Shown here piece after piece: positions 11,533 through 52,088 of a DNA stretch of 64,000 nucleotides. The stretch is from an uncultured Acidimicrobiia bacterium (GTDB lineage: Bacteria; Actinomycetota; Acidimicrobiia; Spongiisociales; JAENVV01): assembly GCA_963847455.1 (NCBI GenBank), contig CAWKAG010000056.1, positions 12,421-76,420 of the forward strand, read 5' to 3'. Numbering within the stretch: position 1 is the first letter of the stretch; each line of letters starts with the position of its first letter. Below the pieces are notes generated by a model. It was given only the letters and a program-made list of their open reading frames with translations, ran no database searches and had not been told where the DNA came from. The position numbers and the translations under genes were made by a program.

Positions 11533-13410
11533 ATGTCCGAAAACGGCACCGGCCATTCAAAGGGCCTTGCAGTCACCTCCCTCGCGGCGTTGGGGGTTGT
11601 GTTCGGCGATATCGGCACGAGTCCCCTTTACGCATTTCGCGAAGCCTTCCACGTCGCCAACCTCGAACCGACCGAGCAGGGCGTGCTCGGCGTACTCTCT
11701 CTGATCTTCTGGGCGCTCGTTCTGATCGTGTCGATCAAGTACTTGATCTTCGTGATGCGAGCCGACAACGACGGTGAGGGCGGCATCCTGGCGCTGACGT
11801 CCCTCATCATGGGCGACGCCGCCAAAACCAAACGCCGAGCCTTGCTCATCGGCATTGGCCTCTTTGGTACCGCCTTGCTCTATGGCGACGGCATGATCAC
11901 CCCCGCCATATCCGTACTGTCTGCGGTCGAGGGACTCGAGGTCACTTTCCCGGGTATTGGACCGTGGGTCCTCGTGATTGCCAGCTTGATCCTGGTCGTG
12001 TTGTTCGCCAACCAGCACCGAGGAACGGCGGTCCTTGGTGCACTGTTCGGGCCGATCATGATCGTCTGGTTCGGCGTTCTTGCCTTCCTGGGCATCTTGC
12101 AGATCATCAAGGAACCCGGGGTGCTGGCCGCCATCAACCCGCTCGTGGCCATTCGCCTGGTCGTACAGGAGCCCAGATTCGCGTTTTTGGCACTCGGCGG
12201 TGTCTTCCTCGTCGCCACCGGGAGCGAGGCGTTATACGCCGACATGGGCCACTTTGGGACCAAACCCATCCGGCTGGCTTGGTTCGGACTTGTCTTTCCC
12301 GCGCTCGTGCTCAACTATTTCGGGCAGGGAGCGCTCCTCCTCAACAATCCTGAGGCCATTGAAAACCCGTTCTACTCATTGGCTCCGTCATGGGCAGTGT
12401 TGCCGCTGGTGATCCTGGCGACGATGGCAACCGTGATCGCCTCACAAGCGCTCATTTCGGGGGTCTATTCCTTGACGTCCCAGGCCATCCAGCTCGGGTA
12501 CCTCCCCCGCCAACGGATCGATCACACGTCACCTCACCATCAGGGACAGATCTACGTTTCCACCATCAACTGGGTGCTCATGATTGCCGCGGTGGGATTG
12601 GTGGTGACGTTCCAGACTTCGAGCGCTCTGGCCGCCGCCTATGGCGTTGGTGTGGCAACCGATATGGTCATCACCGCGATACTCATTGCCGTAGTCATGA
12701 AAGAGCGCTGGAAGTGGTCGACCCCAGTCGTGGCGGCGGTCATCGCCTCCTTCCTGGTCGTCGACCTGACCTTCTTTGGCGCCAACATCACCAAGATTCC
12801 GGCAGGTGGCTGGTTCCCGCTCGTCATTGGCGTCATCGGGTTCGTGATCATGGCTACCTGGAAACGAGGCCGCGAACTTATGGCGGCCCGTCTCACCAAT
12901 GCCGACTTCCCTGTCGAACGGTTCATCCAGTCAATCGTCGAGACCGATCAACAGCGTGCATCAGGCACCGGCGTCTATCTGTACTCGAGGGCAGGTGCCA
13001 CTCCCCCGACTTTGATCACCAACTTGCGACATCACGAAGTCCTTCACGAAAAGATTGTGCTCGTGAGCATTGAGATCAGCTCACACCCACGCGTGCCGCA
13101 AGCCCGCCGATCAACCGTCCACGATCTTGGCGAAGGCTTCTACCAGGTTCAGTTGTTGTACGGATTCATGCAGCAACCCGATGTCCCTTACGACCTGAAG
13201 AATATCGTGTCCACCGAGTTCGGCTTCGACGACACCAAGGCGACCTACTTCCTGGGGAAGGAGACCGTTTTGGCCACCGATCTACCAGGGATGGCCATCT
13301 GGCGGGAGCGGCTGTTCTCGGTGATGCACCGGAATGCATCGAGCGCCGCTACCTTCTTCAACCTGCCTCACGACCAGGTGGTCGAAGTCGGGATTCAGGT
13401 AGCGATCTAG
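11533..13410 (+). CDS. kup: KUP/HAK/KT potassium uptake protein
   Basis: GVVFGDIGTSPLY, DNDGEGG, YGDGMITPAIS, GSEALYADMGHF, GQIYVSTINW, AAAYG and FLGKET. Confidence 0.97.
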   Translation: MSENGTGHSKGLAVTSLAALGVVFGDIGTSPLYAFREAFHVANLEPTEQGVLGVLSLIFWALVLIVSIKYLIFVMRADNDGEGGILALTSLIMGDAAKTKRRALLIGIGLFGTALLYGDGMITPAISVLSAVEGLEVTFPGIGPWVLVIASLILVVLFANQHRGTAVLGALFGPIMIVWFGVLAFLGILQIIKEPGVLAAINPLVAIRLVVQEPRFAFLALGGVFLVATGSEALYADMGHFGTKPIRLAWFGLVFPALVLNYFGQGALLLNNPEAIENPFYSLAPSWAVLPLVILATMATVIASQALISGVYSLTSQAIQLGYLPRQRIDHTSPHHQGQIYVSTINWVLMIAAVGLVVTFQTSSALAAAYGVGVATDMVITAILIAVVMKERWKWSTPVVAAVIASFLVVDLTFFGANITKIPAGGWFPLVIGVIGFVIMATWKRGRELMAARLTNADFPVERFIQSIVETDQQRASGTGVYLYSRAGATPPTLITNLRHHEVLHEKIVLVSIEISSHPRVPQARRSTVHDLGEGFYQVQLLYGFMQQPDVPYDLKNIVSTEFGFDDTKATYFLGKETVLATDLPGMAIWRERLFSVMHRNASSAATFFNLPHDQVVEVGIQVAI

Positions 13411-49300: not shown

Positions 49301-49780
49301 ATGAGTAAGTCGTGGACCGAGTTTTCCGAAGAATCCCCCGATCTGGCTACTGCCATTCGTACCCGGTTCGAGTCGCATCTCCATCACGTAATCGCCACCG
49401 TGTCGGCTAGCGGAGCCCCACGGGCCAGCGGGACGGAAATCCGATGGTGGAACGACAATGCGTGGCTCGGTTCGATGCCCGGTTCACGCAAATCGGCCGA
49501 TCTGAAGGCAGATCCCCGCTTTTCTATTCATAGCCATCCCGACACCAGCGAGTTGCTGGAAGGCGATGCCAAGCTGGCCGGTGCTGCCGTGTTGGTTGAC
49601 GATGCCGCGGTTCGGCAGGCCTACTCCGAGTTCATCGGCCACCCCGGCGACGATCCCTACGACCTGTTCCGCCTCGAGATCTCGTCGGCCTCCCATGTGA
49701 GGGTTTCCGATGACAAAACCCACCTGGTCATCACCTCGTGGTCAGCCGACGGCGGTACGAGGGTGATCGAGCGGACATAG
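49301..49780 (+). CDS. Pyridoxamine 5'-phosphate oxidase-like split-barrel flavin/F420-binding protein
   Basis: IATVSASGAPRASGTE, SMPGSRKSADL..DPRFSIH and DAKLAG.A. Confidence 0.88.
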   Translation: MSKSWTEFSEESPDLATAIRTRFESHLHHVIATVSASGAPRASGTEIRWWNDNAWLGSMPGSRKSADLKADPRFSIHSHPDTSELLEGDAKLAGAAVLVDDAAVRQAYSEFIGHPGDDPYDLFRLEISSASHVRVSDDKTHLVITSWSADGGTRVIERT

Positions 49781-49817
49781 CTCAGCTCCCGGCACTAACG
49801 GAGCCACTTCTCGACAA

Positions 49818-50648
49818 GGTGCTCGTTCCGGCACGTCCGGCTAATGGACGGTCAAACGACATCGGATTCAGACGCCTTCTCAACGATGCAGCGACACAAC
49901 ATGACCACCTGGTCGGTCCCCCAGCGGAACGAAGTGGAGCGCCGCATCAGTCCCCCAGCAGAACGAAGTGGAGCGTCCGGCGTCGGTTCCCGAGCGGAAC
50001 GAAGCGTGGCAGACGGCAGCGTGACCTGCGGTCACACAGCAGAACGGCAAGCCGTTCTGCCGACGGACTGGCAGCGCCAGTCGCGTGGGGGCTCGTTCCC
50101 AGCAACGGCACGTCCGGCTGGACGGGTACACGCATCGGATTCGGACGTCTTCCCAACGATGCAGCAAACGACGACCTCACCGGTCGGAACGTAGTGGAGC
50201 GTCCGGGGAGAAGGTTCCTGCGGCCGGAGCGGAGCGTAGGTCGGAGGTAGAGGGGCTCGTTCCCAACTAGGGACGCCGGCTTATGGATAGTCGCAGACAT
50301 CGGATTCGGGAGCCTTCTCAACGATGCAGCAACCACCAACAGAGCGACCACCTGGTCGGTCTCCCCAGCGGAACGTAGTGGAGCGTCCGGGGAGAAGGTT
50401 CCTGCGGCCGAAGCGGAGCGTAGGTCGGAGGTAGAGGGGCTCGTTCCCAACTAGGGACCGCCAGGCTTATGGATAGTCGCAGACATCGGATTCGGGAGCC
50501 TTCTCAACGATGCAGCAACCACCAACAGAGTGACCACCTGGTCGGTCTCCCCAGCGGAACGTAGTGGAGCGTCCGGGGAGAAGGTTCCTGCGGCCGGAGC
50601 GGAGCGTAGGTCGGAGGTAGAGGGGCTCGTTCCCAACTAGGGACGCCC
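49818..50648. repeat. Array of 4 complete plus 1 partial hairpin-rich tandem repeats (units of 270, 164, 184 and 186 bp)
   Basis: Anchor GG(G/T)GCTCGTTCC at 49818, 50088, 50252, 50436 and 50622; the last two full units are nearly identical; shared modules CATCGGATTC..CAACGATGCAGC and GGAACG(A/T)AGTGGAGCG. Confidence 0.95.
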
Positions 50649-50749
50649 AGCTGAAGTCGTTGCCCGGAAGGATCCCGCGGGTTGGTCGTCCGTTCGGTAA
50701 GAAATCTTTCGAGTTTCGTTGGCGGTTTGGGCGTTTTCGGAGTGTTTTA

Positions 50750-50771
50750 TGTCACTGGTGGGTCGTATTGT
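50750..50771 (+). promoter_or_regulatory. RecA-NDp/PafBC-type DNA-damage promoter (leaderless)
   Basis: TGTCACTG-gtgggtcg(8 nt)-TATTGT, then 6 nt, then ATG; the mycobacterial consensus is tTGTCRgtg-N8-TAnnnT. Confidence 0.75.
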
Positions 50772-50777
50772 TGGGGA

Positions 50778-51864
50778 ATGGAAGACGATAGTTTGCGATC
50801 GGTTACCACCGACCAACTCGAACAAGATTTCATAGCGGACGAACGGCTTATCGGCCGGCTGCGAGCCCGCCAAGCGATCCGCCTGGCCGAACTCGACACC
50901 CGCCAGGTCCACCACGGCGACGGATGCCGGACCATGGCCGAATGGGTCAGTTCCCGAGCCGACGTGTCCGCCCACACGGCCAAACGGCTCGTTGCGGTCA
51001 CGAAACGCATGATCGACCGTCCCGACCTCCTCGGATCACTTGCTGCCGGTGACGTGTCGTTTGAACGAGTCGAACAGATCGCCCGCACCACCCACACCAT
51101 CGACGACGTCGCCCACCTCGACATCGCCTCGGTTGCCCGGCTGGTCGCCAAAGAAACCCGCCTGACCCGCCATGACGAACAAGACGCCCACGCCGCCCGG
51201 TTCCTGACCATGCAACCCAACCTGGACCAGTCACTGTGGAAAGTGTGGGGACAGCTCGCCGGACTCGACGGGGCCATCGTCCAAGACGCCCTGTTCGCCC
51301 GAGCCGACACCTTCCCCACCGAATCCCACCAAGATCTCGAGGGCGACCCGCAACGCTGACGCTCTCGTCTCCATCGCCCAGGACTCCCTCACCGCCACCA
51401 ACCCGGACGGTTCTGCCGACGCGGTGGCTGACCTGGTTGTGTTCGTCGACACCCGCCAAGGCCAAACCACCAACGGATATGTGCCGGCCGGACCGATCGT
51501 CGGACCCAACACCATCGACGAACTATTGTGCACCGGCTCCGCCGTCGATTACGTCACCCTCAACGCAGACGGCGAAACCCTCAACGTCGGCCACAAATCC
51601 CCCAAGATTCCCCGCAGGTTCCGTCGGGCCGTTCTCGGACGTGACGACGGCTGCTGCGTCGACGGCTGCACGTCGCGCTACCGACTCCAAGCCCACCACG
51701 TCATCCACTGGGCCGACGGAGGACCCACCAACGCCAACAACCTCGTCACATTGTGTTGGTTCCACCACCACGTGATCATCCACCAACGCGGCTTCACCAT
51801 CAAACCCGACTCACCCCGAACCCGACTCCGCCTCCAACGCCCCAACCGAGCCCCACCCGACTGA
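50778..51864 (+). pseudogene. DUF222 (REP13E12-like) HNH endonuclease, +1 frameshift at about 51326 (probably a sequencing error)
   Basis: DUF222-type N-terminus; after the frameshift SRATRNADAL, RRAVLGRDDGCCVDGC, AHHVIHWADGGPTNANNLVTLCWFHH. Confidence 0.9.
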
Positions 51865-51869
51865 ACCAG

Positions 51870-51895
51870 GCGGCGGCTATACCCGGTGCCGCCGC
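51870..51895 (+). terminator. Perfect 8-bp GC hairpin after the HNH gene
   Basis: GCGGCGGC-TATACCCGGT-GCCGCCGC. Confidence 0.6.
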
Positions 51896-52088
51896 TGACA
51901 AGTCCTACTTCTCGCACTCAAGCGACCACCCCATCCGGTAGCTATCCCCAAACCCAAACGACGATTTCGCCGCCAGGCCTCGATCGGACGCCGTTCACCC
52001 GCGTCCAACAGCCGTCCTCGATGTTCCAACTCCACATTGGTGTCCTGCGCCGCTGCCGGCGACCTCTCGTTGCTGCGGATTCGAACCC

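Follow-up and report, generated by a model that had tools for sequence, protein, structure and literature searches.

The stretch of DNA analyzed here (the window) comprises 64,000 nucleotides, positions 12,421 to 76,420 of contig CAWKAG010000056.1, from the metagenome-assembled genome (MAG) GCA_963847455.1 of an uncultured bacterium of the Acidimicrobiia. It features an array of five head-to-tail repeat units spanning positions 49817-50650, located between a gene for a PNPOx-like protein and a gene for a DUF222-HNH nuclease of the REP13E12 type. An earlier note, made from the sequence alone, had proposed that this array may be a substrate, product or RNA partner of the nuclease. Each unit of ~186 bp consists of module A (the first ~100 nt), which contains the core motif TTCTCAACGATGCAGCRAC (A-core), and module B (~85 nt, unit positions 103-186). 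G000 denotes this genome, other G numbers stand for related genomes and C numbers for contigs. The features of the locus are:

49301-49780, + strand: gene for a PNPOx-like protein (pyridoxamine 5'-phosphate oxidase fold), from the list of open reading frames (ORFs) and Pfam (PF01243, E = 1.2e-8)
49817-50087, + strand: unit 1, the oldest and most degenerate, with a partial module A (A-core at ~49875-49895)
50088-50251, + strand: unit 2, module A in diverged form and a copy of B (50170-50264)
50252-50435, + strand: unit 3, full modules A and B (A-core at ~50313-50333, B at 50355-50448; covariance-model score 93.5 bits)
50436-50621, + strand: unit 4, full modules A and B (A-core at ~50499-50519, B at 50541-50634; covariance-model score 93.6 bits)
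50622-50650, + strand: truncated unit 5, the first 26-29 nt alone (GGGGCTCGTTCCCAACTAGGGACGCC)
50750-50771, + strand: predicted promoter of the HNH gene, read from the sequence as TGTCACTG (50750-50757), N8 and TATTGT (50766-50771)
50778-51864, + strand: DUF222-HNH (REP13E12-type) nuclease gene, assigned by Pfam on the intact ortholog from G004
51865-51928, + strand: right end of the segment shared with a paralogous locus on contig C34, from blastn between the loci

The tandem array is confirmed as a real observation. Among the five anchor copies given in the earlier note, those at 50088, 50252, 50436 and 50622 match GGGGCTCGTTCC perfectly, while the one at 49818 (GGTGCTCGTTCC) carries one mismatch, and the start-to-start distances between units amount to 270, 164, 184 and 186 nt. 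Tandem Repeats Finder reported positions 50185-50644 with a period of 186, 2.5 copies, 98% matches and a score of 890. The string GGGGCTCGTTCCCAACTAGGGACGCC opens every unit as a direct repeat. The polarity described earlier, with near-identical units beside the HNH gene and diverged distal ones, was borne out, units 3 and 4 being 98% identical and the units far from the HNH gene sharing 62-79% identity with the proximal ones. Likewise, the distance of about 130 bp between array and HNH gene holds, as the array ends at ~50650, 128 nt upstream of the ATG at 50778; at its other side it starts 37 nt after the stop codon of the PNPOx-like gene. Four differences, comprising a 2-nt indel and substitutions, separate unit 3 from unit 4, so that the two can be told apart as copies and are no trivial duplication of a string. 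Unit 2 is 77% identical to the reference unit in blastn, and its B copy scores 66 bits with the covariance model presented below. In unit 1, the 5' half of B (29 nt) is present three times, at 49913, 49947 and 49983 (period 34-36), and is followed by a three-hairpin module at 50011-50082 that occupies the place of hairpin P2 of module B.

Several straightforward identities of the array were rejected. The four ORFs that cross it have no Pfam match and are not continuous through the repeated units, which speaks against a protein-coding array, and a CRISPR array is incompatible with a unit of 186 nt in which the sequence between the anchors is itself repeated (98% for units 3 vs. 4). A relationship of the repeats to tRNA or tmRNA was checked and none was found. 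An Rfam search over the array at E <= 1 yielded only two matches in the window, both unrelated and far under threshold. Neither promoters nor intrinsic (U-tract) terminators above chance were detected within the array, and a covariance-model search for B found no repeat copies 3' of the HNH gene in the window.

The two modules were separated by iterated nhmmer searches over all 84 contigs of the assembly (2.97 Mb, 86% complete). Module B, with 49 nhmmer matches, is present in about 48 copies that form about 13 intergenic clusters on both strands of this ~3-Mb genome, and 10 of these clusters have no HNH gene nearby. It is laid out as 5'-GTCGGT, hairpin P1 (CCCCCC..GGGGGG with a variable inner hairpin), AAGG, a variable hairpin P2, and GGTAG-GGGGG-CTCGTTCC-3'. 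Two subtypes, T1 and T2, with 3' ends reading ..GGTAGGGGGGCTCGTTCC or ..GGTAAGGGGGCTGGTTAAG, usually face one another; they lie on opposite strands, together with tandem linker modules, in the clusters on C14, C16, C28, C32, C48, C51 and C79. Clusters are situated, for example, after tuf (twice), between the genes for signal recognition particle (SRP) RNA and tRNA-Ser, and beside an epimerase-like gene, and they contain further short tandem modules, i.e., a 32-nt CTCGTTCCTCTCTCCGAGCATGCAAGCGAAGG unit, the 52-nt 5' half of B, and the three-hairpin module that can stand in for P2 as it does in unit 1. Mosaic modules or tandem B units also occur away from HNH genes on C41 (period 179, 2.9 copies), C42 (period 111, 3.6 copies), C48 (a repeat of ~429 nt) and C28. 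The B clusters are therefore mosaics with the architecture of bacterial interspersed mosaic elements (BIMEs), which are composed of repetitive extragenic palindromic (REP) sequences.

Some details of individual copies were noted in passing. At G000:C41:33267-34060, three 179-nt units in tandem, each with a B copy, come directly after the SRP RNA gene and before tRNA-Ser. A single B copy at G019:C10:321944-322016, read by eye, lies antisense in the spacer between two nuo subunit genes, which indicates that B elements can sit inside operons; in this copy GGAGG is sequestered in hairpin P2. In the B consensus (CCCCCC..GGGGGG-AAGG..GGTAG-GGGGGG), a single C6 run is accompanied by two G6 runs, so that two mutually exclusive pairings of the C run are possible, and in subtype T1 the 3' CTCGTTCC is able to pair with GGAACGA of the inner hairpin. 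A 495-aa ORF between B copies of the C79 cluster was considered as a transposase and rejected, as it reads by eye as an NAD-dependent epimerase-like protein with a spurious N-terminal extension. Rfam, applied at gathering score to 12 B-cluster loci, reported only tRNAs and SRP RNA.

With regard to structure, the earlier note had described each unit as an ordered series of hairpin modules. This did not hold for the unit as a whole, which at 186 nt folds no better than shuffled sequences (z = -0.5 on the plus and -0.9 on the minus strand); one large structured RNA per unit was rejected, since the minimum free energy does not surpass that of shuffles on either strand or as DNA. It did hold for two stems in the second half of the unit, CTCCCC..GGGGAG and CCTGCGGCC..GGTCGGAGG, both of which are backed by covariation, the latter in a register that is shifted compared to the CCTGCG/CGTAGG pairing given before. 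The CATCG/CGATG stem and the GTAG-footed stem, of which few independent copies exist, stay putative. A covariance model, which had been suggested as a check, was built from an alignment of 22 copies from G000. It comprises two helices, TCCCCCC/GGGGGGA with the variable inner hairpin inside and CCTGCGRCC/GGYCGGAGG, in which 93% of the cells are paired and 8 of the 16 pairs show a compensatory change; none of 500 shuffles was as good, and controls with slid pairing reached 41-63%. When the model was run on the other genomes, 98 distinct copies were aligned with 94.9% of cells paired, a percentage that is somewhat inflated because a model-fitted alignment leans to the structure, with compensatory changes in 11 of 16 pairs and 216 cells changed on both sides vs. 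at most 23 in slid controls. Furthermore, G-U pairs outnumber A-C mismatches by 60 to 10 in the B copies, indicating that the strand as written is the selected one, be it as RNA or as single-stranded DNA. Both hairpins of B are thus under selection and one strand is favoured.

Module B is by no means confined to this organism. It was found in 24 of 41 related genomes, among them all eight genomes of the genus with 2-91 copies each. Outside the genus, G019 of the same family has 55 copies, and 41 and 57 were counted in members of other families in the order. All of these genomes are MAGs and the copy numbers are lower bounds; the highest count stems from a 50-contig assembly and highly fragmented MAGs yield few copies, so that the counts are probably limited by assembly. 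A strict pattern scan of one genome per prokaryote species matched only uncultured Acidimicrobiia MAGs. The B family therefore spans an order of Acidimicrobiia. A Y1 transposase of the REP-associated tyrosine transposase (RAYT) type (PF01797) was present in none of the 41 genomes, while the same search was positive in 6 of 14 control genomes, and a canonical REP-RAYT system was accordingly rejected.

Module A is distributed differently. In G000, nhmmer located it at two sites only, the window array and C34:103011-103659, both directly upstream of paralogous DUF222-HNH genes, and the A-core motif forms no clusters elsewhere in this genome. In four other species, the A-core is present upstream of HNH orthologs or paralogs, namely the orthologs in G002, G003, G007 and G004:C12 and a paralog of 52% identity, G004:C33. 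The A-core thus belongs to this HNH lineage, for which it could be a regulatory site, an element end or a nuclease site. The alternative named in the earlier note, an ordinary repeat that occurs genome-wide irrespective of DUF222-HNH genes, describes most clusters of the order-wide, intergenic module B and not module A.

The HNH gene of the window contains one extra base near 51336 in the assembly; its ortholog G004:C12 is intact and encodes 361 aa, in which Pfam recognizes DUF222 (PF02720, E = 2e-16) and HNH (PF01844, E = 2.8e-7) as the only domains. The paralog at C34:103754-104988 (C34:104k), with 89% DNA identity, has another single-base indel at ~104056. Taken together, all three DUF222-HNH genes that bear arrays (window, C34:104k and C34:20097-21150, C34:20k for short) have single frameshifts in the assembly, and the frames of the four array-free ones are uninterrupted. 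The segment common to the window and C34:104k begins ~20 bp ahead of the first A-core and ends 64 bp past the stop codon.

Between array and ATG, the HNH gene has its own leaderless promoter of the DNA-damage type, as predicted from the motif TGTCACTG-N8-TATTGT, which we take to be the mycobacterial RecA-NDp/PafBC promoter layout. The ATG follows 6 nt after TATTGT, and the predicted transcript would be leaderless. REP13E12-type genes are members of the mycobacterial DNA-damage regulon. Upstream sequences were read for five of the six other DUF222 copies in G000: a TGTCAC-type element precedes the ATG of the copies C34:104k, C34:20k, C84 and C3 (four of the five read), the C63 copy has a looser version (TGTCACAG) and for C70 no such element was read. 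The same layout is found before the orthologs in G002, G003, G004 and G007. PafBC and RecA-NDp are the subject of PMC6789036. Since the predicted promoter lies between array and ATG, the array would not be the RNA leader or guide of the HNH gene. With DUF222 and HNH as the only domains and no Rfam match in addition, the RNA-partner role of the HEARO/IscB kind that the earlier note had considered is unlikely.

The history of the locus was traced through syntenic regions. The arrangement with a PNPOx-like gene upstream of the HNH gene is old and syntenic, orthologs of the PNPOx-like gene marking the locus in G007, G002, G003, G001 and G005. At the orthologous site in G007, a 340-bp spacer holds one unit resembling window unit 1, with A-core, half-B repeats, the three-hairpin module and a CTCGTTCCC tail; sequence of ~76% identity to window positions 49950-50120 is the only repeat sequence at this site. 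In G002 (C74) and G003 (C158), the spacer is ~1.08 kb long and contains no B and several copies of the A-core (TTTCAAYGATGCAGCGAC), spaced about 110 nt apart in G003:C158. G004:C12 has about one A+B unit, followed by the identical GGGGCTCGTTCCCAACTAGGGACGCC junction and the same spacer, where the syntenic G000:C34 has about 3.5. Thus, the number of units at the window locus and its paralog varies between species, and the expansion at the HNH-proximal end that the earlier note had suggested is in agreement with the single ancestral-type unit in G007 and the approximately one unit in G004:C12. The full A+B unit is 91% identical between the two paralogous loci of G000 and was duplicated at the window locus with 98% identity. 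For the HNH gene of G004:C12, similarity is higher to the window copy (92%) than to the syntenic C34 copy (89.6%), and synteny is lacking on its right flank; both observations hint that the HNH segment underwent gene conversion or moved.

On this basis, we consider it likely that the array is a locally amplified part of a mosaic, intergenic REP/BIME-like repeat and does not serve the HNH nuclease as a dedicated partner, whether as RNA or as DNA. Ancestrally, a single unit would have lain between the PNPOx-like gene and the promoter of the HNH gene. Further units may have been acquired through exchange with the paralogous locus; unequal recombination or replication slippage, acting on the 26-nt direct repeat, would then have multiplied them and placed the youngest copies next to the HNH gene. 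Located upstream of the leaderless promoter, the array, if transcribed at all, would be read as a 3' tail of the PNPOx-like gene. A conserved protein partner of B, if there is any, would be a small DUF559/Vsr-like endonuclease flanked by B copies, to which we return below.

The surroundings of the DUF222 genes have to be weighed against local amplification of a dispersed repeat. In agreement with the description of DUF222-HNH genes as multi-copy in the earlier note, G000 has seven DUF222 loci. B mosaics are situated immediately upstream on the same strand in three of them (window, C34:104k and C34:20k), and B clusters are found in the same arrangement at three of five DUF222 genes in G004. Recurrences within the genus comprise G004:C12, which is syntenic with C34:104k, the paralog G004:C33 (52% protein identity) and a set formed by G004:C27, G001:C326, G007:C91 and G003:C369, for which orthology with C34:20k is assumed on the basis of matching upstream sequence. 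A binomial estimate for B upstream of DUF222 in G000 results in P values of about 2e-5 to 2e-3, or 1e-3 to 3e-2 when the two paralogs are counted as one event. Three points weigh against the reading that we prefer: in the genus, the position directly upstream of DUF222-HNH genes is enriched in B clusters, the A-core travels with the HNH lineage including the paralog of 52% identity, and the structural support for B from other genomes comes from the alignment that leans to its model. The weaker association of repeats, A-core and this HNH lineage at the genus level is real, and some functional tie to the HNH locus may exist.

In one form of such a tie, A, perhaps also B, would serve a mobile or gene-converting HNH unit as its recognition site, cleavage site or terminal sequence, and breaks induced by the nuclease followed by recombinational repair would drive the gain of units beside the gene. 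This explanation would account for the confinement of module A to HNH loci of this lineage and its retention upstream in G002, G003, G007, G004:C12 and the paralog G004:C33, for the bounds of homology between the paralogous loci just before the first A-core and shortly after the stop codon, for the presence of B on the same strand upstream of several DUF222 genes in both G000 and G004, and for the similarity of the G004:C12 gene to the window copy as a hint of exchange. On the other hand, four DUF222-HNH genes of G000 with intact frames have no upstream repeats, B is absent within 1.5 kb from all 29 DUF222 loci of genomes outside the genus, tandem amplification of B is found equally at HNH-free loci, and both loci are old and syntenic across species and not recent transpositions. 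DUF222 occurs in 38 of the 41 genomes irrespective of B, and neither its copy number nor its presence predicts B. We know of no biochemical data for any DUF222-HNH protein, and a literature search found nothing that links DUF222-HNH to repeat arrays. We therefore regard this explanation as rather unlikely. The enrichment near DUF222-HNH genes expected in the earlier note is real in G000 and G004 and does not extend to genomes outside the genus; from its proposal of a substrate, product or RNA partner, the local association within the genus persists, and a dedicated role is not supported, most B clusters having no HNH gene nearby.

Less probable still is that the array acts as RNA, through read-through from the PNPOx-like gene, as 3'-end stabilizer, as terminator or insulator before the HNH promoter, or as source of small RNA. 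The selection of the hairpins on one strand, apparent from the G-U to A-C ratio, the co-orientation of every array copy with the upstream PNPOx-like gene and the frequent location of B clusters after highly expressed genes (tuf, SRP RNA) would fit such a function, and REPs are known to act in this way (PMC3733652). However, the subtypes face opposite ways in the clusters, so that half of them are antisense to any one transcript, the G019 copy is antisense within the nuo operon, the array contains no U-tract terminators or promoter-like sites, and the whole unit is not unusually stable. Finally, that the extra near-identical units are an assembly artefact, i.e., a mis-expanded repeat in a MAG, is highly improbable: the assembly consists of 84 contigs with about 4% contamination, near-duplicate contigs (C28/C51, 98-99% identical) and several frameshifted genes, but units 3 and 4 differ at four positions, the paralogous C34 locus is independently multi-unit with diverged units, and unit number varies among species at otherwise collinear loci.

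A candidate partner of the B family came, unexpectedly, from outside the window. At G000:C28:36689-37045 (minus strand), an ORF of 122-147 aa lies inside the B cluster downstream of tuf, with B copies on both sides within about 20-110 bp. It encodes a DUF559/Vsr-like endonuclease of the PD-(D/E)xK type (PF04480, E = 2e-28; PDB 3HRL, E = 5e-14, with VADF...VVEADG aligned to VDF...IVEADG, the D...E-x-D core). A frameshifted twin is located at C51:35428-35797. The surrounding regions, C28:33068-40500 and C51:31801-39171, share tRNA genes, tuf, the B cluster and tRNA-Trp and are 98-99% identical outside the repeat cluster; the explanation is either a recent duplication or strain heterogeneity in the MAG, and what varies is the repeat cluster. 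Relatives of DUF559 include Vsr nucleases specific for T:G mismatches and a homing endonuclease of group I introns (PMC3424549).

Small DUF559 genes flanked by B are also present in G004 at the same locus, in G002 at a different locus after nuoD, in G019 from another genus and in G026 from another family. In an order-wide search of 251 genomes, the small DUF559 gene was found in 83, with one to three matches each. In short-read MAGs a contig very often ends 100-400 bp away from it, as would be expected if flanking repeats interrupt the assembly. A scan of the 27 best-scoring loci outside the genus showed 14 with B copies at a distance of roughly 10-460 bp from the gene, for the most part no more than 170 bp away, and at 10 of the 14 such copies lie on both sides. 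The 14 loci stem from six families (f1, f2, f4, f6, f7 and f12); including G000, G004, G002 and G015, the total amounts to 18 genomes with B-flanked DUF559, and the gene occupies different chromosomal sites in different species. As a control, B was near none of 13 loci in which DUF559 is the C-terminal domain of a ~300-aa protein. Of the 8 B-rich genomes (at least 15 copies) among the 41 relatives, 7 contain the small gene, vs. 10 of the 33 others (Fisher P = 0.005). The link is incomplete: the gene occurs in some B-free genomes, and in some fragmented MAGs B is present but the gene is not. A RecA-NDp-like promoter before the DUF559 genes was looked for and appeared inconsistently. A metagenome scan with the DUF559 protein returned five distant relatives only, with no B nearby, and is uninformative, and no connection between DUF559 and repeats was found in the literature.

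It is conceivable, though doubtful at present, that B is a REPIN-like family of Acidimicrobiia for which a small, low-copy DUF559/Vsr-like endonuclease, not a RAYT, is the cognate enzyme. If this were true, it would represent a second, independent solution for maintaining and spreading hairpin repeats, and the arrays beside DUF222-HNH genes would be by-products, arising either at permissive sites shared by selfish nuclease genes and B clusters or through break repair with gain of units. As candidate partner nuclease of a repeat family, DUF559 is new.

In comparison with known systems, the array does not argue that DUF222-HNH nucleases have a guide RNA or a dedicated substrate. It resembles HEARO/IscB omega-RNA in that structured non-coding sequence lies directly 5' of a gene with an HNH domain, and differs from it in lacking an Rfam match (E <= 1), in a protein with DUF222 and HNH and no RuvC domain in Pfam, in the predicted leaderless promoter that separates array and ORF, and in a repeat that occurs mostly away from HNH genes. 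The nuclease genes themselves resemble mycobacterial REP13E12, with DUF222 followed by HNH, multiple copies (seven loci) and a predicted promoter of the RecA-NDp layout. To our knowledge, REP13E12 has not been described with an upstream array of hairpin repeats, and the array found here differs in being a separate repeat family. Pneumococcal BOX elements (boxA-boxB(n)-boxC) and mycobacterial MIRU consist of short ordered modules, one of them iterated, that are intergenic and vary in copy number between strains. The B mosaics are similar in being composed of ordered short modules, one tandemly iterated, within or after operons; there is no sequence relationship, and B has conserved junctions and covarying stems across a whole order.

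The closest parallels exist with the GTAG-tagged REP/BIME/REPIN-RAYT elements of Proteobacteria. B is likewise a high-copy, extragenic, dispersed hairpin repeat (up to 91 copies in a relative), its subtypes alternate in inverted orientation in clusters with fixed linker modules, an invariant GTAG block (GGTAG) stands beside a hairpin, sites after genes are preferred, and a nuclease gene is flanked by repeats, a single-copy one in the RAYT system and DUF559 here. In contrast, B has ~85 nt and two, sometimes four, hairpins, the two main ones covarying, where a REP is a single palindrome of 20-40 nt, and its GGTAG lies 3' of hairpin P2. The flanked gene encodes a PD-(D/E)xK Vsr-like DUF559 protein and not an HUH tyrosine transposase, Y1/RAYT being absent from all 41 genomes. 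The host belongs to the Actinomycetota, a group that the 2013 survey does not mention under the word "Actinobacteria" (PMC3733652). CGTC-tagged REPs have no dedicated transposase and their mode of spreading is unknown (Di Nocera et al., 2013; PMC3733652). B resembles these as a dispersed palindromic family without RAYT and differs from them in tag and sequence and in its physical linkage to a candidate enzyme. The family thus goes beyond an ordinary REP in its order-wide sequence and covarying structure, in forming BIME-like mosaics without RAYT and in bracketing a Vsr-like gene. Its repeats break short-read assemblies of Acidimicrobiia and thereby hide embedded genes. For the question of how palindromic repeats that lack RAYT originate and spread, raised for the CGTC REPs in PMC3733652, the B family supplies a concrete candidate enzyme together with defined DNA hairpins.

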